From: Dictyostelium discoideum | Lineage: Eukaryota | DNA length: 64,000 bases | Direction: 5' to 3' | NCBI GenBank assembly: GCA_000004695.1 | Contig: CM000154.2 | Location: 4,096,001 to 4,160,000 of the forward strand | Shown here: piece after piece, positions 17,138 through 36,300 of the stretch | How positions within the stretch are numbered: the stretch's first letter is position 1 | Layout of the letters: each line of letters starts with the position of its first letter | Made by a program: the position numbers and the translations under genes | The notes under the pieces: model-generated | What the model was told of the DNA's origin: nothing | Seen by the model: the letters and a program-made list of their open reading frames with translations, nothing else | The model's database searches: none

Positions 17138-18100
17138 TTATTCAAATTTTGGTGTGATTGGAATATTATTAATTAATTCAACTCTTTTAAAATTTCTGGA
17201 GATTGCGTCATGAAATTCTTGATAGTTTTCAATATTTACACTATGACCACTACCTTGAAAAACTACAAATTCTGTTGGAGATAATATTGAATTTAAATAA
17301 TGACTACCAGATGGACTAACCAAATCGTCGTGAGTACCTGTGATAATTGTAATTGGACCACCTATTTTCTCTTTAATTTCTAATAATCTTTTTTTTGACA
17401 CTTTGTGAGTATTGACAGTCCTAATATGGCCATAAAGTGCAGATATTGCTGGTGGTTTAGTAGTTTCCATATCTTTACAATACTTTTCGACAAACATTTC
17501 TAAATTTGTTTTTGTTGGATCCACTAAGGACTGTTTGATTAGGTATGGTTTAGAGTATAAAATAGCGGCCAACACTCTGCCTCTCTTTCTATGATCTCTA
17601 ATGAATATAGTTTGAGTTATACCCCATACACCTCTTGCTGGTGCTAAACTACCTGCATGTGTAACTACCAATGCTAATGATTTCATACGTTGTGGTGCTA
17701 AATGAGCCAATTCCAACGAGATCATACCACCCATGCTAACACCTACAACATGTGCTTTCTCCCATTGTAAATGATCCATTAACTCTAGTAAATCGGTTGC
17801 CATTGAGCTTGAACTATATGATGTCGTTGGATTACCACTTCTACCAACACCTCTATTATCAAATATTAAGTATTCATAATTTTCATCTTTTGTAAATTCC
17901 TCTAAATTCTTATACCATAAAATACCTTGTGTTAAAAATCCCATTACTAATACAACTTTATCTTTACCATTATCTTTATTATAATTTCTACTATCTGTTT
18001 CATTATTTATATGATTATTATTATTATTACCACCACTATGTATTTCATAATACATATCAAATTCACAACCCCTACTTTTTCCTATTTTACAAATTGGCAT
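17138..18100 (-). CDS. Alpha/beta-hydrolase fold protein (AB hydrolase-1 type)
   Basis: VVLVMGFL, FDNRGVGRS, and the nucleophile-elbow G-x-S-x-G context HVVGVSMGGMISLELA. A His-containing C-terminal region is present. Single exon with an A-rich upstream tract. Confidence 0.85.
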   Translation of the reverse strand: MPICKIGKSRGCEFDMYYEIHSGGNNNNNHINNETDSRNYNKDNGKDKVVLVMGFLTQGILWYKNLEEFTKDENYEYLIFDNRGVGRSGNPTTSYSSSSMATDLLELMDHLQWEKAHVVGVSMGGMISLELAHLAPQRMKSLALVVTHAGSLAPARGVWGITQTIFIRDHRKRGRVLAAILYSKPYLIKQSLVDPTKTNLEMFVEKYCKDMETTKPPAISALYGHIRTVNTHKVSKKRLLEIKEKIGGPITIITGTHDDLVSPSGSHYLNSILSPTEFVVFQGSGHSVNIENYQEFHDAISRNFKRVELINNIPITPKFE

Positions 18101-19860: not shown

Positions 19861-20380
19861 TCAATAATATATAATTCTTTTATTTTTTTTTAGAAAAAAA
19901 AAAGAAAAAAAAAAAAAAAAAAATTAAAAATAATAATAATAAAAAGCAATCAAATAAACACTGTATAATAAATAAATATGGCTTATTTTTTAATTATTAT
20001 TTTTTATTTTTTAATTATTATTTTTAATTATTATTTTTTATTTTTCCTTTTTTTATCAATTCCTAAATTTGAAGTACCATTATTCTTTAATGAATCTTTA
20101 ATTTTTGAAAAAAAAAAGTTTATCGTTATGATTATTTTAATAATAAAACATTCAAACAAAAAAAAAAAAAAAAAACTGGAAAATTCCCAAGATTTTTTTG
20201 AAAATGTAACCTATTTTTTCACTTTTTTTTTTTTAATCATTAATTTTCTCAAAAAAAAAAAAAAAAAAAATCAAAAACAAATTTTTGTATGTGTTTCTCT
20301 TCTATAAATAAGTTAGTTTTTTTTTTTTTTTTTTTTCGTTGTTGTCTGTTGTTTTTTTTATACTAATATTAATAAAACCA

Positions 20381-21886
20381 ATGACTTCAACCAACAAATA
20401 TTTAAATAATAATAATAATAATTTTCAAATGACACTTCCTCAAAATTCAAATAACAATATTAATAATAATATAATAACATTAAATCATTTTATTTTTAAA
20501 GATTTATCATTATTTTTAGCAAATAAATCCACATTTAATGAAATTTTAGAATATGCATTATTATCAAAAAAATCATTTGAAATTTTTAGAAATATATTAT
20601 CATATAATGGTAATATTTGTAGTATAGTATTTCCATTTTCTTCATTAAAAGATTATGCATTTAATAATTTTTACGATTTACGGAAAAATAATCCAAGTAC
20701 ATACAAATTTAAATTAATACAAAATAAAGAAACTCAATATCTTTCATTATCAATTACAAATAAACAACAACAAAAAAAGCAAATGAATAAAATAAAATCA
20801 TATTTAAAATTAGTTTTTCCAAATTTAAAAAAAGTCAATATAGCCAATAAAGTTAAAACCCATTTCCATTTGAATAAATTTGATAACGATGATGATGATG
20901 ATGATGTTGTTGGTGGAGGTGCATTGTATCAAGAAAATGAATTTGAATTTTTCGATGATACATATAATGGTTTTTTTTCGTATGAAAGAGTTTCTATAGA
21001 TTGGGATATTTATAGACTACCATATTCAAATAACAATGAAATTAAGGAAGCCGTATCAGACCTTCGTGGAAATATGTTTTATCCATTTAGTTTTCAAGGA
21101 GTTGAAAAGTTAAGACCTAGAAAAGTCTATTTAAGTTCCTATCCAAAACATTGTATTCACTTATACAATGTTGATTCAATTTTAAATTATTCAACTATCA
21201 GATCAATTAAATTTCAAAATACACCATCAACACCATCATTCATAAAGAAGGCTTTATCTTTACCAAATGTTAAATCATTATCATTGAAATTAATGAGTCA
21301 AGATGGAAATGATCTTCAAGAAATTGATGGTGATTTCGTTTATAATGTTTTCAAAGATGCCGCTTTAGATGAAAATTCAACATTAAGAAGACTACTATTC
21401 AAATCAATTTATCAATCATCTGAAAAAGGAAACCATAATGACCTGGAAATAAATAAAAGAAATCTAATGTTATTTTTTACTTTATTAAAATCAAATTGCA
21501 CATTAGATACATTGGGTTTAGAATTTTTTAATATCAAATATTGTAAACAATTAGACCCATTATTAGAAATACCCAATATAACCACTTTATATATTCATCC
21601 TAATAATATCATACCAACATTAGTACATTGTTTAGATAATCAAAATATTCAACAATTAAAATTTCAAATTGACGATTTTGATTTAGATTTTGATTCAGAT
21701 TTACATAGTAATGAAGTATTGACAGGTTTCTTTAAAGTGAATAACACTTTAAATAAAATTGTAGTTACAAAATCATCATCATCATCATCTGTTAAATCAA
21801 AACAATTTTTAAAACTATTAAAAAAACTTATAAAAAATAGTAAAACATCTTGTAAATTAATTATTAAAAAAGTTGATTTAAAATAA
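20381..21886 (+). CDS. Hypothetical protein (Asn-rich N-terminus; possible F-box-like/LRR-like)
   Basis: The 515-aa ORF in the track starts inside the poly-T promoter. The probable start is the MTSTNKYLNNNN methionine at 20381. Non-repetitive from aa 50 to 500. Confidence 0.5.
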   Translation: MTSTNKYLNNNNNNFQMTLPQNSNNNINNNIITLNHFIFKDLSLFLANKSTFNEILEYALLSKKSFEIFRNILSYNGNICSIVFPFSSLKDYAFNNFYDLRKNNPSTYKFKLIQNKETQYLSLSITNKQQQKKQMNKIKSYLKLVFPNLKKVNIANKVKTHFHLNKFDNDDDDDDVVGGGALYQENEFEFFDDTYNGFFSYERVSIDWDIYRLPYSNNNEIKEAVSDLRGNMFYPFSFQGVEKLRPRKVYLSSYPKHCIHLYNVDSILNYSTIRSIKFQNTPSTPSFIKKALSLPNVKSLSLKLMSQDGNDLQEIDGDFVYNVFKDAALDENSTLRRLLFKSIYQSSEKGNHNDLEINKRNLMLFFTLLKSNCTLDTLGLEFFNIKYCKQLDPLLEIPNITTLYIHPNNIIPTLVHCLDNQNIQQLKFQIDDFDLDFDSDLHSNEVLTGFFKVNNTLNKIVVTKSSSSSSVKSKQFLKLLKKLIKNSKTSCKLIIKKVDLK

Positions 21887-22280: not shown

Positions 22281-25200
22281 TTAAAGTGGTAAAACTATTT
22301 CTTTTTCTTCTGGTTCAGTTTCAGTTAATGGTGAAATGGTTGGATCAGAACCAAATAATGAAGAGAAATCTTGTTTTTGTCTTGATGGAGTATTATTATT
22401 TGATTTTGCAACGCTGATTCCACCAAATAATGAATCTGAATCAAAGAGACCACCATTTGAAGTTGATGATGCTGTTGATGTTGATTCTTTGTTTGTTTTA
22501 ATTGAACCAAAAAGATCATCAGTTGAATCTGTATCGAATGGATCTTTCTTGGTGGTAGTTGAAGGTTTATCGAAAATGTCACTAGAGTTTCCAAATAAAC
22601 TATCGTCATCAGTACTAAAGAAATCTTTCTTTTTAGTTGAAGTTGGAGTTGATGAAGTTGTATCGGCAAATGGATCAGATGATGCAGCTGTTGATTTAGT
22701 TTCGGTTTCAGTTTCAGCTGAGAATGGACTATCATCAAAATCAAAGAATGATGTCTTCTTTGGTGTTTTCTTTGTGGTATCAGCTTCATCTGGTTTAACT
22801 GGTGTTGATGAAGTTGTAGTTGTGGAAGTGGTAGCGGCAGTAGTTGATGATTCTTCTTCTTCAGTAGTGGTTTGTCTTGGTGAATTATCAATTGATGGAA
22901 TTACTGGTGCAGTTGTTTCATCATCATCAATAGTTGGTGGTTCAACAACTTTTTCCTCTTCTTCTTCTACTTTTTCTTCTTCTTTCTCTTCTTCTTTTTC
23001 TTCAGTAGTTGTTGGTTCATCAACAGCAAATGGTGATGATTCAAATTTAGTTTCATTAATTTCTTCTTTAACTTGTTCAACAACTTTTTCTTCTTTTTCT
23101 TCTTCCTCTTCTACATCATCAATTGGTGGTGGAGTTGATGGTGTTTCTTCAGAATCTGATGCAACATCTTTTTCATTATCTTCATCATCATCTTTATTTA
23201 AAACTGGAACTTCAACTTTAGTTTCCTCTTCTTCTTCTGGAGCTGGTTCTTCAACAACTTTTTCATCTTGTTCATCATCTCCTAAAACTGGTACTTCAAC
23301 TTTTTCAAAATCGTCTTCATCTAAAGTTGGTGGTTCAACAATTTTCTCTTCAACGTCTGATTCAACTTTATCTTCTTGTTCATCTTCTAAAACTGGAACT
23401 TCAACTTTGGTTTCTTCTTCTTCTTTTTCTTCTTCTAAAACTGGTACTTCAACTTTAGTTTCCTCTTCTTCTTCTTCTTCAGATTCTTCTTTAGTAGATG
23501 AGAGTGGATCAACAACTTCTGATTTAGTAACAACTGGAGCTGTTTCTTTTTCTTTTTCTTCTTCTTCGTCATCATCGTCTTCAAGTTCATCACCCATTTC
23601 TTGTTGCATCTTTTCAATTTCGGCATCAATATTTTTAAGATCTTCTTCATTGATATCATCATAATCGTCTTCATCGTCGTCATCATCTTCATCATCTTTA
23701 GTAGAGAGTGGATCAACGACAGTTTGTGATTTAGCGACAACTGGTTCTTCAATTGCTGGTGTTGGTTTTTCTTCTTTAACTTCTTCAACAACAGTGACTG
23801 GTTCTTCAACAACAACTTCTTCTTCTTTAACTTCTTCAGCAATAGTAACTATTTCTTCAACAACAACTTCTTTTTCTTCTTCTTCTTCTTCTTGTTCTTT
23901 TTCTTCTTCTTTTTCTTCTTCTTTTTCTTCTTCTTCTTTTTCTTCTTCTTCTTTTTCTTCTTCTTCTTTTTCTTCTTCTTCTACAACTTCTTCTTCTTCT
24001 TTTTCTTGTTGTTGTTGTTGTTTTTCTTTTTGTTCTTGAATGTATTCAACAGTAACTCTTTTAATTACATCTTTAAATGTTGACATGATAGAATCAGTTG
24101 AATATTCTTCATCTTCATCAAATGATTCAGATACTTGAACAAATACTTTTTGCATACAAACTTTAACTTCTTTAGCGACATCAACATTGTTTGAAGATGC
24201 AACAGCAACAGTGGTACCATCGGATGGAACTTTAACAATAACTTCTTTAACGATAGTTTTTGGTGGTTGTGATTCTAAAGTTGATAATTTCTCTTTAGTT
24301 TCAATTAAAGATTTCTTTGTATCATCATATTGAGTTGTTAATTGTTGAATTTGTTGTTGAAGGGTGGTGATTAAATCATTCTCTTGTTTAGTTGATTCAA
24401 TACCTTCGGCGAAACCTTTTTTGTATGATTTAATGACTTCCTCTTTCTCATGATCCAATTTCTTTTTAGCATCATCGATTAATTTTTGTAATTGATCGAT
24501 TTGTTGGTTATTTGATTGTACGAGTTTATTATATTTCGATTGTTCCTCACTAAGTGATAATTCAGCAGCAGCGATAGCTTCCTCCTTTTTGATTAATAAA
24601 AGATTGAATTTGGATTCAGTCTCTAAACGAGTATTTTCAACCAAAGTTTGAACAGAGGATAAAGCTGAACGTTCAGTTTCCAAGGTATCTTTGAGTGTTG
24701 TAATCTCCAAAGTTAATTGAGAGACCTTATCATCGTTTCTCTTTTTAATTCTAACCATATCCAATTTAAGTCTCTTTAAGGACTCTTCATTGCTTTTCTC
24801 TGCTTGAGTCAAACTATCTTGAGCATCCTTTAACTCGTCCTCCAAAGAGTTGATTTTTTCAATATCAGATTTTCTGGCGTTCTTTTCATCGAGTAAACTC
24901 TTTTTGAAAGCACGGATTTTAAGGGCATAATCTTTTTCAGCTTGTTTGAGTGCCTCTTGATCTTGAATACTCTTTTGGTTCTCTTCTTTGGCAGAGTTGA
25001 GTTCCTCTTGAAGGGTGTTGTAGTCTCTCTTTAATTGATTGATAACTGATTGTGATTTAGTGTGTAACATTTGTTTATCGGCGAGATCATCCTCAACCAA
25101 TGTTTTTTGTTTTTGAAGGTCAATGATTTGTCTTCTCATTTGAGCGACATTATCAGTGATTGCTTCATTACGTGATTCCATCATTTTAGTGTTCTCTTCG

Positions 25201-27371
25201 AGGAATTGTTCATTCTTTTTATGAAGGGTAGCAATGTTTTCCTTTAGTGTAACCATACGATTCTCTTTTTCAACGTTCTCTTTGATCAATTTTTCATTGT
25301 CTTCAACTAATCTATGAAGTGTTTGAACTAATAGCACACCAGAGATTGGTACATCGCCTTTAACGATTGGTTGTGCCAATGAGTCAAATTTACTACTAAC
25401 TTGATCTAATTTACTATTGAATTGATCGATAGAATGTTTAATCTCCTTTTTGAATTGTTTCTCTTCAACCAAGATTTGAATGGTTTCAGTGGTTGATTGT
25501 ACTGGTGCTGGTGGTGCTTGAACAATCACTGGAGTTGGTGGTGGTGGAGCTGGTGCTGGTGTTGGTGGTGGTGCTTGTTGAACTGGTGGTGGTGGTGATG
25601 CAACAATAATTGATGGTTGTTGATGTTGTGGCATAATTGGTACCAATGCACCTGATCCAATCAATGCTTGTTGTTGATTATAAGCTGATCCAAATGTGCC
25701 CATTGGATTGAATTGTGGTGATTGTGATGATGTATACATATTACCATTCATACCAAATCCACCATTCATACCATTATTCATACCATTCATACCATTATTA
25801 AATCCATTATTCATACCATTCATACTATTATTACCAAATCCATTATTCATACCATTATTAAATCCATTATTATTATTCATATTATTATTATAATTATTGT
25901 TATTATTATAACCATTATTATTATTGTTATTATTATAACCATTGTTATTATTATTATTGTTATTATAATTGTTGTTATTGTTATTATTTTGGTTGTTATT
26001 TTGGTTGTTATTGTTATTATTATTATTTTGGTTATTATTATTATTGTTGTTATTGCTATTGCTATTGCTATTGTTATTGCTATTGCTATTGTTATTATTA
26101 TTGTTATTGTGACTATTATTGCTATGTGAATTTCTTGAGTTTGATTCATTCTCACTATCAGATGGTGGTGGAGAAGTGAAACCAGTGGCTCTACCTAATT
26201 TAGCAACTCTTTGAAGTAAATTAGCTTTATCATCCTAATAAAATAAAAAATAAAAAAATTAATAAATCTAAATTTAAATAATAATAATAATAATGAAAAT
26301 AATAGAAAGAAAAGACATACTTGTGGTACTGGAGAATTATCAAATAATTGAGTTGGTAAGGATTGTTGTGGAGCATTTGATGGTTGACCATTTAAAGATG
26401 GAAGTGAAGGTTCAGAACCTTCTTTTTTCTTTGAACCAGTGACTTCAAGGTCAAAGATTAAATTTGTATTTGGTGGAATGGTTGAATGACCTTTCTTACC
26501 ATATGCTAATTCTGAAGGAATGACCAAGATTCTTTTAGCGGATTTTCTCATACCAATGACACCTAAATCCCAACCTTTGATGACTTTACCTTCACCAACT
26601 ACAAAACGGAATGGTGTTTCCGATTGGAGATTAGAGTCGAATAAACTACCAACTCTTTGATTGTTCTCTAACCAACCTGCATACTTTATTGAAACACGAT
26701 CACCATTTGCAACTGGTTTGGTTTTCGATTGATTGTTGATATCGACAAATGTAATCTGTTGATAACCACCACTCGCACACTTGGCAATTGCAACATGAGT
26801 GGCATATTTAGTTGATTCCTCTGCTGAGTTGAATGTCATTGACCAGTTTTGGCCATTACCATCTGTGAAACTACCATAGATTGTTGTCACTGAATAATTG
26901 AATTGTGCTGTAATATTCACTGTGACAATATAATTCTTATTATTGTCATATGCTAATAATTGATATTTACCACTTGATTTATATCCTACAATTGCTGTTG
27001 CAATACTACCTGATGATACATATTCATTTTTATTATTATCACTATTGACAGAGAGAGAGGAGAGAGAAAGAAATTAAAAGAAAAAGAAAAGAGAGATTTT
27101 AAATTTAAAATATAAAATTAATAAATTTTTTTTTTTTTTTTTTTATTGTTATTATTTTTTTTTAAAAAAAAACTTACAATTTATATAAATGAATTGGGAA
27201 AGAAATTAAAACATCTGGTGAATTTGAATTTGCTGAGGATTGTGTTTTATTATTTGTATATTGTAATGATTGGTTACCTGACATTGCGTTATTATCTTTA
27301 AATAGTGATCCAAGTTTTTGTGAACTAGCTGCGTTTCTATTACTGTATTCTTCTTCTTCAGAAAAATTCAT
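22281..27371 (-). CDS. FKBP15/WAFL-like protein: N-terminal domain + FKBP-type PPIase domain + Q/N-rich linker + approx. 600-aa coiled coil + acidic E/K-rich and S/T-rich tail; three exons 27371..27178, 27041..26321, 26234..22281 (approx. 1620 aa)
   Basis: Exon 1 (ATG 27371, MNFSEEEEY...) ends in a phase-2 GTAAGT donor at 27177. Exon 2 follows the acceptor AG at 27043-27042. It encodes ...NWSMTFNSAEESTKYATHVAIAKC plus the FKBP core DRVSIKYAGWL...FRFVVGEGKVIKGWDLGVIGMRKSAKRILVIPSELAYG...LIFDLEV. A phase-0 GTATGT donor lies at 26320. The acceptor AG at 26236-26235 joins in frame to the 1199-aa track ORF, with no stops between 26234 and 25880. The track split this gene into three ORFs and began the FKBP exon at a GTG. 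The N-terminal segment resembles human FKBP15 (WAFL) as I recall it (from memory, unchecked). Confidence 0.8.
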
Positions 27372-28290: not shown

Positions 28291-29405
28291 TGACTTTATT
28301 ACCAAATTATTTATATAAAAATATTTTAATAGATTTAATAACATATATCTATAAACACAAAGTAATCAAATTTTTATGTGAAAAATCAATTGATTTTTTG
28401 TTGTTTATAAAAATAATGAAATAATTTTATATTCCACAGTTTCAAAAGATTGGTTTAATATAATTTCATCAAATTTACCACATTTAATTAATCATTATAG
28501 TTTTATTTTTTTTCACTTTCAAAAGTTATAAAAATTCTTCGAATCAAATTAATATAAATTATTTATTTCCTAAATTAAAATTAAATTATAATAATAATAA
28601 TGAAAAAAATAAAAAACTATTTTTAAATAGAATTAGTATAAATGACATGTTGAATATATATATGAATAATTCTGGTGAGGTTATTAAAGATGAGGATTTA
28701 AATTTAATTTTTGAAAAAATATCAAGTGATAAAACATTAAAAGAAATTCAGCTTAATCATGTTTGCGATTGTAGATGTAGTTGTTTTAAAGAAATTGGAT
28801 TAGATGTGGAATCATTTGGTAAAGCTATTGAAAAGTTACTGTCAGATTCAACTTTACTAAAATCAATTCGTTTGCTTCAGTTTACAACAGATTTAGATGA
28901 CTATATTATTAGAGGTTTAGTAAAATGTAAATCATTAAAAACACTATACATAAATGGTTATGATTATGATTCATTTAGTTTCCCATCAATAATTAATAAT
29001 ATACTATATTCAAATTCATCAATTAAACATATTATATTAGATTCTTATTCAAATGATGAGCTTGAAACTAATACAACCAATATTATAAATGGTTTGGATC
29101 AATTAATTGTCAAATCAGAGCTTGATATTACCACCAACATCAACAACAACATCAGCAATTTATTGGGTTACAGTGAAAGTTTTAATAATAATTTTGAATT
29201 TTATTCAATAACAATTACATTAAATTTTAATTTTTATAATTCTATTTTGAATTATTTAAAAAATTATAGTTTTAGAGTTAACGAATTCTTTTTAATATTT
29301 TCAAATCCTGAGAAATATCCAAAACATCACAAATTTACTCAATTTAAATTAAATAATTCTGTTATTAATAACAGAATTATGTTTTCTCATTTTAAATTTT
29401 TTTTT
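28291..29405 (+). pseudogene. Degenerate/truncated paralog of the downstream F-box-like gene (two frameshifts, about 600 aa internal deletion, no clean stop)
   Basis: 28291-28425 encodes MTLLPNYLYKNILIDLITYIYK..., nearly identical to the start of the 29686 gene, but hits a stop. Homology continues in a second frame (NNEIILYSTVSKDWFNII...) and then a third (FTFKSYKNSSNQININYLFP...MLNIYMNNSGEVIKDEDLNLIFEKISSDKTLKEIQLNHVCDCRCSCFKEIGLDVESFG...). The C-terminal 290 aa are still an intact ORF (28647..) but run into poly-T instead of the paralog's stop. Confidence 0.45.
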
Positions 29406-29685
29406 TTTTATTTTTTATTTTTTTTTTTCTGTTTTGTCTTGCAAGCCCGATTTTTTTTTTTTTTTTTTGAAAAGTTTAAAAAATCAAGTAAAAAAGCTTG
29501 GTTTTTTTTTTTTTTATAGAGATGACGTGGAGAAATTTCTTTATTTTCTTAAAAAACTTTTTTTTTATTTTATTTTATTTTATTTTATTTTTTTTATAAT
29601 AGATTTAACAAAATTTCATAAAAAAAAAAACACTATAATAGTTTTATTTTTTTCTTTTTTTTTTTTTTTCTTTTTCATTATCCAA

Positions 29686-30909
29686 ATGACTTTATTACCC
29701 AATTATTTATATAAAAATATATTAATAAATGTTATAACCTATCTATATAAAAATGAAACAATAAAAAAATTGTATAATCTTGGTATCAATAAATATAATA
29801 ATAATGAAATAATATTATATGCCACAGTTTCAAAAGATTGGTTTGATATTATCACATCAACATTACCACACTTTATTAATAAATATAATTTTGATATATT
29901 AAAGCCTTTAATTAATTTTAATGCTAATGAAAATGAACAAAATAATAATCAAAAATTAATTAAAACTCAAGATTTAAAATTCGCTAAAAAAACTTTATTT
30001 TTTTCTAAATATTTGGATTTATTAAATCCTACAACTCAACAAGAAAATGAAGTTGTAATTCAAGTTAATGCTGAAAATGAAGTTGTGAATCAAGCTAATG
30101 CTGAAAATGAAGTTAATAATGCAAATGATGTAATTGAAGTAAATTTAAAAGAAATTGAAGAAAAAAAACAAGAAAAAGAAAGTTTAGATTATTTTAAAAA
30201 TCTAGTACTTAGAGAATTTGATGTTGAAGAATCATGTAGAATCATTAATTCATTAAATCAATATACAGACAATTTTCGATTTTTTTTAAGTTTGGATAGA
30301 GAACATTTTGTTTATAATAAAATCCATACGATTACTGATAAAGAAACCTTAAAGAAAATTTTTTTCCTAAATTTAAATTGTGATTTTTTGGATGAATTAT
30401 CATTAAATAAATTTTTCAATTTAAATATTAGAAAGAAATCCTTTCAACATTTACCTGAAGAAGAATATAAATTTGAAAATTTCACTTTTAATTTCGTTTT
30501 TAAAAGCTTTAAAAATTCTTCAAATCAAATTAATTTAAATTATTTATTTCCAAATTTAAATTTTAATAATAATAATAATAATAATAATAATAGCAATAAT
30601 GATATCCAAAGTCCACAAACAAATAAAAAAGTTATTTTAAATAATATCAGTATAAATGATATGTTAAATATATATAATAACCCAAATGATAATAATAATA
30701 ATAATAATAATAATACTAACAATAACAATAACAATAACAATAACAACAATATTAATGTTGATAATGATAATAATAATAATGAAAACAATAATAATAATAA
30801 TAATGAAAATGATAATAATAATAATGATAATAATAATAATAACAATAATAATGTTGATCATGATAATAATAATATTAATATTATTAATCAAAATGATAAT
30901 AATAATGAA

Positions 30910-30987
<78 letters not shown>

Positions 30988-31567
30988 GAAAATGAAAATG
31001 AAAATGAAAATGAAAATGAAAATGAAAATGAAAATGAAAATGAAAATGAAAATGAAAATGATAATAATGAAAACAATAATATTATAAAAGACGAAGATTT
31101 AAATTTTATTTTTAATAAATTATCAAATGATCATACATTAAGAAAAATTGATATTAATCATATTTGTGATAAAGGTAGTTGTCGTTGCTTTGAAAAAAAT
31201 GGTTTAACATTAGAATCATTTGGTGACAAGATTGAAAAATTACTTTCAAGTTTAAAATCAGTTAAAACAACTAAATTATATTCATATTCGTCAAGATTAG
31301 ATGATTATATTATTAGAGGTTTATCAAATTGTAAATCATTAAAAACACTTTATTTAAGTGGTTATAATTTTGATTCTTTTGATTTTTCATCAATAATCGA
31401 TAGATTAATACTTTCAAATTCATCAATTAGTCATATTTTAATAGATTCTTATTTGGATGAGGAATTTGATCATTTAATGGAAATAACTAATATTACAAAT
31501 GCTTTACTTCGATTGGCAACAGATAGAGAAGAAAATACCAACAACTCTTCAGATTATAGTCAAAGTT

Positions 31568-31654
<87 letters not shown>

Positions 31655-31869
31655 TTAATAATTTTGAATTATATTCAATTACAATTCAATTAAATTTTAA
31701 ATATTATGATATTATTATTGATAATCTAAAAAACTATAATTATAGAGTTAAGGAATTCTTTTTAATATTTCAAACTTCTGGCAGAGAAAGAGAATCAGAA
31801 TATCGCCAAATTAAAGCAAATAACTCTGTTATCAATGTTTTCATTTTCACTGTTTTAACTGACGGATGA
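29686..31869 (+). CDS. F-box-like protein with a huge Asn-rich / (Glu-Asn)n low-complexity insert and an LRR-like C-terminal domain
   Basis: The true start is MTLLPNYLYKNILINVITYLYKNETIKKLYNLGINKYNNNEIILYATVSKDWFDII, matching the F-box pattern LPxxLxxxILxxL...VSKxW. The track ORF begins 250 nt earlier in poly-T. Includes (GAAAAT)n encoding (EN)14 and poly-N tracts. The C-terminus (...CRCFEKNGLTLESFG...LKTLYLSGYNFDSF...) is homologous to the 28647 ORF. Confidence 0.7.
30962..31066 (+). repeat. (GATAAT)n to (GAAAAT)n hexanucleotide repeat encoding DNDNDN(EN)14
   Basis: Read directly: gataat x4, then gaaaat x14. Confidence 0.95.
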
Positions 31870-33371: not shown

Positions 33372-36300
33372 TTATAAACTTGGACCTGAAGAATCACTAT
33401 TTGAATCTAAATCATCTTGGAATAAAGAAGAAACTGTTCTAGATTCATTTGTCCAAGCACGAGGTAAAACAGGTGAATAGGAAACACGATTAACTCTACT
33501 AAATCTTTTACTTCTTAAAGTTGATTTACCATCACCAATATAAGACATACTTGGTGAATCTGGTGGTGTTGGAATTGGACTTGGATTACTTGAACTTTTA
33601 CCAGATGAAGAATTTGAAGAGTTTGAAGTAGTATTATTATTACTATTGTTGTTGTTTAATTGACCACTTGAAGAATGATTAGATAATGGAATACCAGCAA
33701 AATTTGATAATGATCCACCCATTGATGGTGGTCTTTTAATTGGTGAAGCTGATGGTCTAGATGGCATAGTATTATGATGTGGTGTAACATTATTTGGTAG
33801 TGGTGGAGTATTAGAACTGACACCATTATTATTTGAAATTGGTCTCTTTGAAGTCATTGGACCAACGGTGTGAGCTCTTTCATGATTTGGTGATCTTGAA
33901 ACTTCAACAGTAGTATGTAAAACATTATCAATTGATTTGGTGGGAGTGGTAGATGGTGAAATTGGTGAACTTAGAGAAGTGGCTACTAAATTATTGTTGT
34001 TGGTTGTGCAAGTTGATTGAGTTGAATCGGTATCAGCATCACCACTATTATCACTTGAAATTGGTTTATTCTCTGGGTCAAATATATCGAAATAATTTAC
34101 AATCATAAAGGAATTAATTGGTAATAGTTCAGAGGCGAATGATCTGAAAAAGGTAGGAGCCCAACAAATTGCGATATTCTCTGGTGACATCATATTTACA
34201 TCCTTTTCCAAAGAGATTAAATGTAAGAGATGGAAAAGCTTCTTTATCATTTTACATTCTAAAGGTGAGAGTTGATCTATAATATCTTTGAGTGATTGTA
34301 TTATCTCTTCATTGGATGACTGTCTCATTGCTTGGAAGAAATATTCATGTAGATTTTCAGGGAAAATTGGATTTGGTAATTCACGGAAATAACTCTTTAA
34401 TACACCTGCCACTGTATCGACATCAACATTTTCTGCTTTTAGGTCAATATCTTCACCTGCTTCAAATCTAGTTTTAATTTTCTTCAATGCGGTTGCAGAT
34501 GCACAAGTTCTGAAAATACCAACAGATGAAATACCTTGTTCCATTAATAGATCGATCGAACGAGATACAAGTGGTGGTAACTCAATGGTGGAAGCATTGA
34601 TTTGAGCTTTATCAGTTAGGGTTACAGCACCACCAGTAGCACGACCAGGATATAATGGTCCCCTTGTTGGTCTTTTTGGTAAAGTTTGAAAGCCAGGATT
34701 TGAACTTTTAGTTGGTGTTGATGGTGGTCCAATTGGTGGTTTTTTAATAACACCAGCCAACGAACCGATTGAAGGTTGTTTTGTTGGAGTTAAACCACCA
34801 GAACTTGTATCGATTGGATGAATATTATTTGGATAATTGATTACGATTGAAGTTTGAATATCTTGAATTGTTTTTAAAATCTTTTCATGAGAACTACCAT
34901 TACTATCATTCTTTAAGATGGTTGAAATATCACTTAATGGTAATTGTAAGATGGTGAGTGATTTCTCGTTACGTCTAATTGAGCATTTAATCATTTTCAA
35001 AGCGGTATAAGAGAAATCATTACCATCGCATTTCAATGATTTCAAAGTTTGATTCTTCCAAAGGATTTTCGAGACAGCCAAAGCACCACTATCACCAACA
35101 CCATTTCCAGAGATATCAAGTTTGACCAATGATTGATTCTTTAGCAATGATAATAACAATGGCATTAAATCGCCCTTCAATTGATATTTACCACTACCAC
35201 TTGCCAATGAAAGTGATTCGATGGATGTATTATCATCGATCAAGTTTATCAATGCCTCTATTGCACGTGCTCTAAGTTTTGATTTTGTTTTAAAGTTACC
35301 ATCGATTGAAAGATGATGAAGATTTGAATTTGGATACATAATTTCACAAAGTTTAATGATACCACCATCACCAAGATCATTCTCTGATAAATCTACACTT
35401 GAACATTTCAATAATGATGTTGCAGGACTAAACAATAGTTTCAAATCATCTGGAGTGGTTTGAATTCTTGATAAATTTACAGTTTGTAAGTGTGACATTT
35501 GTTTGAAAAATGATAAGATATCAATTACACTCTCTTTGGTTGTAGTTGATTTATTACCACTAAAATCCAAAGTTTGAATCGATGATGATGATGTCTTTAA
35601 AAAACTATAAACTGGACTTGTATTACTCATTAATAATTGTTGTAATGCCGTTGCTTTCGATAAGAATTTACATAAACCATTTGTACCATAACTTTCTAAT
35701 TTATTGTTTGAAATATTCAAATGAGTCATTGATCCACATACTACATTATTCGCTGTTAAACATCCAAACATTGCCTCTAATCCTTTACCAGAACATGATG
35801 TATTTTCAATATTTAAATATGTTAATCCATTTGAAAATGTTTGAATACTTGATCCTAATGTTAAAATACCTTTATTCTTTTTTCATCATAATCATCATAA
35901 TCATCATTATTTATTATTATATTTTTTTATTATTGAAAGTTAATAAATTTATAAATTATAAAAACAATTTGTTTAATAAACAAAATTAACTTACTTCTAA
36001 TGAATTATTATTTAAATTAATATGTGATAAATGAAGAGCTTTATTTTCAGCAACATTTTGAAGTAAAGTTATTATTGGTTCTTTTGAAGCTTGACTATTT
36101 GTAATTGTTAATTGTTGTAGTGAGGAATTCTCTTTGAATACTTCTGCTAATAGGTTTAGATCTTCGTTTGATAATTTACCATTGGATTGAAATGATTGAA
36201 AGTATGTATTATAGGAGAGTGATAAAAGTATTGCTTTTAGATCTGTGAATGAGTATTGATAGATTTCCGCTAAATTAAATTCTCTAACTTGATTGAATGG

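Follow-up and report, generated by a model that had tools for sequence, protein, structure and literature searches.

The minus strand between positions 22281 and 27371 of a 64,000-nucleotide stretch of Dictyostelium discoideum DNA (hereafter, the window; contig CM000154.2 of assembly GCA_000004695.1) raises a question of gene boundaries: does this interval hold several genes or a single spliced one, and to which protein family does its product belong? Three open reading frames (ORFs) are listed on this strand, at 27174..27371 (65 amino acids, aa), 26195..26920 (241 aa), and 22281..25880 (1199 aa), and an earlier note, made from the letters alone, had proposed that they merge into one gene resembling FKBP15/WAFL. 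We are highly confident that the interval is one three-exon gene on the minus strand and the orthologue of animal FKBP15 (WAFL, FKBP133). The joined protein and FKBP15 share eight features in the same succession. These are an acidic N-terminus with a KLxSLF motif; an EVH1/WH1-like PH-fold; an FKBP domain; an LxxRxAKxG motif; a variable low-complexity linker, here with poly-Asn and poly-Pro; a coiled coil of about 400 residues, the first 216 of which align with animal proteins without a gap; a small conserved helical block; and a long acidic disordered region ending in short LF(G)-acidic motifs. The order expected in the note (N-terminal domain, FKBP, coiled coil, acidic region, and S/T-rich tail) is thereby recovered.

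How do the three ORFs fit together? The exons 27371-27178, 27041-26321, and 26234-22281 were joined by script, giving a coding sequence of 4869 nucleotides (nt) and a protein of 1622 aa without an internal stop, in line with the approximately 1620 aa anticipated. The exons and introns are as follows.

27178..27371, minus strand: exon 1, with the ATG at 27371; residues 1-64 and two nucleotides of codon 65
27042..27177, minus strand: intron 1, 136 bp, GTAAGT, a CT-rich tract, and AG, 85% A+T, phase 2
26321..27041, minus strand: exon 2, from the third base of codon 65 to residue 305; most of the EVH1/WH1-like domain and the entire FKBP domain
26235..26320, minus strand: intron 2, 86 bp, GTATGT to TTAG, 91% A+T, phase 0
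22281..26234, minus strand: exon 3, residues 306-1622 and the TAA stop codon (22283-22281)

Exon 1 encodes the acidic N-terminus, a KLGSLF motif (27300-27317), and the first strand of the EVH1-like domain. Its GTAAGT donor (GT at 27177-27176) overlaps the stop codon of the 65-aa ORF and leaves two codon bases in the exon, and the acceptor of intron 1 (27043-27042) is the first AG past the donor, preceded by a CT-rich tract. The run of the 65-aa ORF into a phase-2 donor, followed by the next exon after a CT-rich tract and AG, can thus be read in the sequence as the note had described it. Splicing over intron 1 yields the codon TT/T for Phe, followed by the reading LYKF DNNKNEY. The exon encoding the FKBP domain closes at 26321 with the phase-0 GTATGT donor that had been claimed for it; only the length of intron 2, given as 85 bp, needed correction, as it measures 86 bp. 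The sole internal AG of this intron (about 26269) was tried as an alternative acceptor and ruled out, as an in-frame TAA follows immediately. From 26234, the frame of exon 3 is open through the ATG at 25880, which bears out the 354 stop-free nt that the note had placed ahead of the 1199-aa ORF and that were omitted by ORF calling. The proposal that the three ORFs form one gene is therefore upheld by the continuous 4869-nt frame, the consensus splice sites, and family motifs flanking both junctions, and the segmentation is the expected outcome of a prokaryote-style ORF listing applied to a spliced eukaryotic gene.

Could exon 3 hide another intron? The G+C content of the window is 22%, with long poly-Asn and poly-A/T tracts, a composition that is typical of a dictyostelid genome. 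The poly-Asn tract of the present gene lies in the following linker.

25500..26147, minus strand: low-complexity linker, poly-Asn and N/G/M/F-rich (residues 335-470), then Pro/Gln-rich (about residues 500-550)

A further intron inside exon 3, for instance within the poly-Asn tract, would shorten the protein to less than 1622 aa. The part of the linker in question (25740-26147) is indeed AT-rich, repetitive, and not conserved; however, it is in frame throughout, and no consensus GTAAGT donor was noticed in it. Relatives carry a variable linker of 150-250 aa at the same place, between the LxxRxAKxG motif and the coiled coil, which is of similar length to the one found here, and poly-Asn tracts are common in Dictyostelium coding sequence, a point that also counts against an intron. 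We therefore regard a further intron as very unlikely.

The next question is whether the exon encoding the FKBP domain and the 1199-aa ORF belong to one protein. Homology across the splice junctions was assessed in an alignment of the present protein with 13 relatives. The product of exon 1 (MNFSEEEEY..KLGSLF..LQYTNNK) aligns with the family N-terminus M.F..DDDD.DF...KLASLFG...LKYTAPKQPK, and joining exons 1 and 2 restores HLYKF/DNN, for which relatives have TYKF or IYKF (..TYKF.NN..) in the first strand of the N-terminal domain (N-domain). At the second junction, a family motif is found.

26184..26231, minus strand: post-FKBP motif DKANLLQRVAKLGRAT, residues 307-322, at the very start of exon 3

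It corresponds to the FKBP15 motif KAKLISRMAKMG and aligns with (S)DKAKLISRMAKMGQPMLP or SDKAKLISRMAKMGQPMLP in animal FKBP15 and with ALLSRMAKLGRATGP in Protostelium; in total, 12 of the 13 relatives have this KLISRMAKMG-type motif downstream of FKBP. In relatives from animals to amoebozoans, the motif encoded by exon 3 comes after the FKBP domain, and the FKBP exon is therefore best read as belonging to one protein with the 1199-aa ORF. Two or three separate genes, i.e., a short FKBP protein from exons 1 and 2 or from the 241-aa ORF alone, which retains intron 2 and stops at 26195, and a coiled-coil/acidic protein that starts at the ATG at 25880, would match the three listed ORFs, and this ATG is the first start codon in its frame. 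However, the 354 nt upstream of it are open in the same frame and start with the family motif, a retained intron 2 would add a 42-residue tail rich in Phe, Leu, and Ile that has no counterpart in relatives, and the relatives run N-domain, FKBP, coiled-coil segment, and post-coiled-coil block in one polypeptide. A division into separate genes is accordingly extremely improbable, and the single three-exon gene is retained in the following.

To which family does its product belong? The N-domain was searched alone (residues 66-168, encoded by exon 2, without FKBP sequence) against 1.84 billion representative proteins with phmmer, which returned 104 matches at E < 1e-3. These are mostly proteins of 900-1500 aa, aligned at about residues 75-175. 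Names were obtained for 20 of the matches. Proteins named FKBP15 or FKBP15-like were found from Lingula, Argopecten, Branchiostoma, the gecko Euleptes, Cephus, Polistes, Thrips, and Bacillus rossius, with named animal proteins reaching an E-value of 9e-10. Furthermore, a protist transcript (Apiculatamorpha) among the matches carries the label K17478 FKBP15/WAFL, and the holozoan Pigoraptor is represented as well. The top match is the amoebozoan Luapelamoeba hula (P0007; 1577 aa, 41% identity, E 2e-13), and a second amoebozoan, Protostelium nocturnum (P0076; 1471 aa), was also found. Similarity of the N-terminal region to FKBP15 had been named beforehand as a check on the proposal, and a search with the N-domain only does retrieve FKBP15 proteins. 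Beyond this domain, residues 19-265 are collinear with residues 20-286 of gecko FKBP15 (33% identity over 269 aligned positions, E 4e-44).

The two folded domains at the N-terminal end are located as follows.

26756..27209, minus strand: EVH1/WH1-like PH-fold domain, residues 55-160, the interval spanning intron 1
26441..26719, minus strand: FKBP-type peptidyl-prolyl isomerase domain, residues 173-265

Structure models and exhaustive searches were built on exon 2 alone and leave out the seventh strand, which is encoded by exon 1. AlphaFold2 models of exon 2 (predicted local distance difference test, pLDDT, 83.3; predicted template modeling score, pTM, 0.76) and of the N-domain only (pLDDT 78.8) both show a long C-terminal helix after six strands. 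The closest fold relatives of the N-domain are Homer3 EVH1 (score of 11.3), the Ran-binding domains of RanBP2 (10.6) and RanBP3 (10.3), ENAH EVH1 (10.2), SPRED1 WH1 (9.9), and VASP EVH1 (9.8), with generic PH, PTB, and FERM-F3 domains ranking below them. As EVH1/WH1 and Ran-binding domains are the top fold relatives, the models assign the N-domain to the EVH1/WH1/RanBD type, as published for WAFL, and it is not a curated member of the Pfam WH1 family. A sequence search of the PDB gave no solved structure covering the N-domain of FKBP15, as all matches lay in the FKBP domain only. This second domain is recognized by Pfam as FKBP_C (PF00254, residues 173-265, E 2.7e-26). Compared to FKBP12, 11 of 14 pocket residues are identical (set: Y26, F36, D37, R42, F46, E54, V55, I56, W59, Y82, H87, I90, I91, and F99), and the FK506/proline pocket is thus predicted to be largely intact.

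Exon 3 encodes, downstream of the linker, a coiled coil and a conserved block.

24267..25478, minus strand: heptad-like region by a crude heptad score, residues 558-961, with prolines at 594 and 601 only
24687-25334, minus strand: FKBP15-type coiled-coil segment, residues 606-821
24030..24197, minus strand: post-coiled-coil block VAKEVKVCMQKVFVQVSESFDEDEEYSTDSIMSTFKDVIKRVTVEYIQ, residues 985-1040

The heptad-like, proline-poor region is narrower than the residues 480-1050 that the note had guessed for the coiled coil. A hidden Markov model (HMM) was built from four animal regions of the Pfam family PF23649 (FKBP15 domain), which in animal FKBP15 proteins lies at about residues 545-785. It matches residues 606-821 without a gap at 62.4 bits (E 2.6e-21), while none of 1000 shuffles preserving composition or heptad register scored above −7 bits, and reversing the sequence gave −24. 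The same HMM detects the Luapelamoeba and Protostelium proteins at 56-59 bits. BLASTP of residues 559-833 with SEG likewise gave collinear matches, with E-values of 7e-23 for Lingula and 4e-12 for gecko. The block at residues 985-1040 matches EVKKIMNxVFxxLRxEFxxExxYxGxxVLxxIxxTIKxVTLQL, a pattern that more than 30 family members share at the corresponding relative position. This block of about 50 residues lies outside the Pfam domains that FKBP15 relatives are reported to have.

The remainder of the protein falls into two parts.

22890..24029, minus strand: acidic region rich in E, K, V, and D, presumably disordered, residues 1041-1420
22284..22889, minus strand: S/T-rich tail, residues 1421-1622, with a cluster of short motifs at 22350-22751

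Repeats of KVEVPVL had been pointed out in the acidic region, and four exact copies were found, at residues 1232, 1248, 1283, and 1311 (23199-23456); Tandem Repeats Finder reports a 48-nt unit at 23371-23480 (2.3 copies, 90% match). On the opposite strand, a 442-aa ORF at 22336..23664 was rejected as a gene and is regarded as a Ser-rich antisense shadow of the GAA/GAT-rich acidic coding region. The tail holds four LFG motifs (residues 1518, 1546, 1574, and 1598), and when the last 170 residues were shuffled 100,000 times with their composition preserved, no shuffle reached this number. Three motifs of the LF-acidic-LF type, FFSTDDDSLF (1510), PFDTDSTDDLF (1537), and LFDSDSLF (1568), and two DPF motifs (1492 and 1536) are also found in the tail, which lacks the strict FxDxF adaptor motif. 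Relatives hold LFG-acidic motifs at the same tail position. Beyond residue 222 the protein has no Trp, and its acidic end does not resemble that of WASP.

How firm is the assignment to FKBP15? Several observations weigh against it. The splice junctions were set by consensus signals and homology. None of the sequence searches made returned a dictyostelid relative, and the joined 1622-aa protein and the 1199-aa ORF were absent from the searched protein and contig collections. The Pfam WH1 match (PF00568, residues 55-149) reaches 18.7 bits and stays below the gathering cut-off of 22.4, as do animal FKBP15 proteins with 18-20 bits. The coiled-coil region has no match to PF23649 even at E ≤ 10, which also applies to the Luapelamoeba protein and to a metagenome protein (P0021). 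Scores for PF23649 drop from 322 bits in vertebrate proteins to 134-194 bits in invertebrate ones, and the curated model appears too narrow for the range of the FKBP15 family. With the match of the custom HMM, we read the start of the coiled coil as a probable FKBP15 domain outside the reach of the Pfam model. In the FKBP domain, three pocket residues differ from FKBP12 (R42S, E54K, and I90T), so that catalytic competence is uncertain. At the C-terminus, the terminal LFGD7LDWL or DLDWL of animals is missing, and the protein ends in EEKEIVLPL. Among animal FKBP15 proteins, several have PPPLFGDDDDDDDLDWL as their C-terminal end, and a second LFG-acidic-LF is often found upstream of it. Of 33 long family members, however, only 10 have a terminal DLDW, and neither of the two amoebozoans checked has one; the motif thus marks an animal subgroup rather than the family. 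Instead of DLDWL, the amoebozoan relatives carry several [ST]LFG motifs, and the present tail follows the same pattern. Finally, all functional statements are transferred from mammalian work by orthology.

A lineage-specific fusion of FKBP with generic coiled-coil and low-complexity sequence, with a likeness to FKBP15 that arose by convergence, can draw on the spurious similarity that coiled coils and acidic tracts produce, on the missing PF23649 and sub-threshold WH1 matches, and on a word-indexed, profile-free search with residues 1-336 that gave bacterial FKBP domains only, but we consider it highly improbable, as the non-repetitive N-domain alone retrieves animal FKBP15 proteins by name, the ungapped 216-residue coiled-coil match lies 69 bits over the best of the 1000 shuffles, and three motifs outside the coiled coil (KLxSLF, LxxRxAKxG, and the post-coiled-coil block) occur in the same order.

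The gene is therefore treated here as a clear member of the known FKBP15 family, which makes this a routine case of annotating a gene rather than the discovery of a new kind of system. Literature searches on Dictyostelium FKBP15, on 'FK506-binding protein 5', and on the WASH complex together with FKBP gave no study of the present protein. D. discoideum presumably has an annotated 'FK506-binding protein 5' of about 1622 aa, possibly the same gene model; if the two are identical, the gene model is already known.

The neighboring genes in the window were inspected as well. Just upstream of the FKBP15-like gene lie two adjacent paralogues on the plus strand, ORFs 28647-29519 (290 aa) and 29434-31869 (811 aa). 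The 290-aa ORF shows 46% identity (E 5e-60) with the last approximately 250 residues of the 811-aa ORF, which has long poly-Asn and (Asn-Glu)n/(Asp-Asn)n tracts. A Pfam scan gave no match for either, and the two may represent a lineage-specific family with a truncated tandem copy. A 515-aa ORF (20339-21886, plus strand) is convergent with the FKBP15-like gene, with its 3' end about 400 bp from the stop codon of the latter. It had no match in a Pfam scan, is Leu/Asn-rich and repeat-like by eye, and may be part of the same group as the two ORFs at 28.6-31.9 kb. Further neighbors on the minus strand encode a RhoGAP protein with leucine-rich repeats (33372-35771; PF00620, E 1e-37) and an alpha/beta-hydrolase (17138-18100; PF00561, E 1e-28), both with no evident functional link to the FKBP15-like gene.

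What might the protein do? A link to early endosomes, the WASH complex, and the FAM21 tail is documented only for the mammalian protein. In mammals, the WASH subunits KIAA0196 and KIAA1033 come down with WAFL in co-precipitation, and the coiled coil appears to mediate the association of WAFL with endosomes (PMC2850539). WAFL/FKBP15 is also pulled down by fragments of the FAM21 tail (PMC3374753). Depletion of FKBP15 lowers endosomal WASH (bioRxiv 10.64898/2026.09.08.749775), and human FKBP15 is reported to promote the recruitment of WASH to endosomes. By orthology, the amoeba protein would most likely form coiled-coil dimers that serve as a scaffold on endosomes or on compartments derived from macropinosomes. 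Its coiled coil would dimerize the protein and hold it on endosomes, and the EVH1-like domain and the tail motifs may act as peptide-recognition and peptide-offering modules, respectively. Such modules could link the protein to the WASH complex, via the FAM21 tail and LFa repeats, and to endocytic adaptors. The FKBP pocket may also be used for the WASH/FAM21 connection, with retromer or adaptor ears as possible partners, and the FKBP domain may isomerize, or merely bind, proline-containing segments of its partners.

A more far-reaching idea concerns the tail. The LF(G)-acidic and DPF motifs of amoebozoans could be working FAM21-like LFa motifs or motifs that bind adaptor ears, providing direct multivalent docking of the Dictyostelium protein on retromer or endocytic adaptors, with the single LFGD7LDWL ending of animals as the reduced remnant of an ancestral mode. 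We consider this unlikely, albeit worth stating: if true, FKBP15 would be an ancient protein that recruits WASH-related machinery to endosomes on its own, and its function could be worked out in Dictyostelium as a simple genetic system. Even in mammals, this function is poorly defined, with FKBP15 being associated with WASH/FAM21 and linked to retromer and to the biology of Parkinson's disease. In an amoeba that is haploid and genetically tractable, and in which the WASH/retromer system is well studied, a clear orthologue offers an easy model for knockout and tagging. The whole set of modules (EVH1-like domain, FKBP, coiled coil, and LF-acidic tail) is furthermore older than the split between animals and amoebozoans. 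These two points and the multiplication of the tail motifs in Amoebozoa are of modest value, and the finding is unlikely to surprise a specialist.

How does the protein compare to known systems? Human WAFL has its WH1 domain at 69-171, FKBP at 178-290, a coiled coil at about 500-950, and an acidic C-terminal end (PMC2850539). Set against this human protein (FKBP15/WAFL/FKBP133; KIAA0674; K17478), the corresponding parts lie here at residues 55-160, 173-265, and 558-961, followed by the acidic region. Shared with animal FKBP15 are KLxSLF, LxxRxAKxG, the probable FKBP15-type coiled-coil segment, and the post-coiled-coil block. The present protein exceeds animal FKBP15 by about 400 residues, which stem from its poly-Asn/Pro linkers and from an E/K/V-rich acidic region that is much larger and holds the KVEVPVL repeats. 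In place of PPPLFGD7LDWL, its tail carries four LFG, three LF-acidic-LF, and two DPF motifs. The Luapelamoeba and Protostelium proteins, which come from transcriptomes, are similar in length and also carry several [ST]LFG tail motifs; identity to them is only 35-39% over the N-terminal 250 residues, and the poly-Asn tract and the KVEVPVL repeats are found in the present protein but in neither of the two. With the EVH1/WH1 domains of Homer, Ena/VASP, SPRED, and WASP and with Ran-binding domains, the N-domain shares a predicted fold at a sequence identity of only 9-18%. A last comparison relates to FAM21 (WASHC2), the LFa repeat of which, L-F-[D/E]3-10-L-F, binds retromer VPS35 and tolerates internal Ser and hydrophobics other than Leu (PMC3374753). 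Like these repeats, three of the tail motifs consist of two hydrophobic dipeptides around an acidic/Ser stretch and appear to fit a relaxed LFa pattern, which is a resemblance only. FAM21 has 21 copies, as opposed to three to four here, where the acidic runs are short and Ser/Thr-rich and the FAM21 head domain is lacking.

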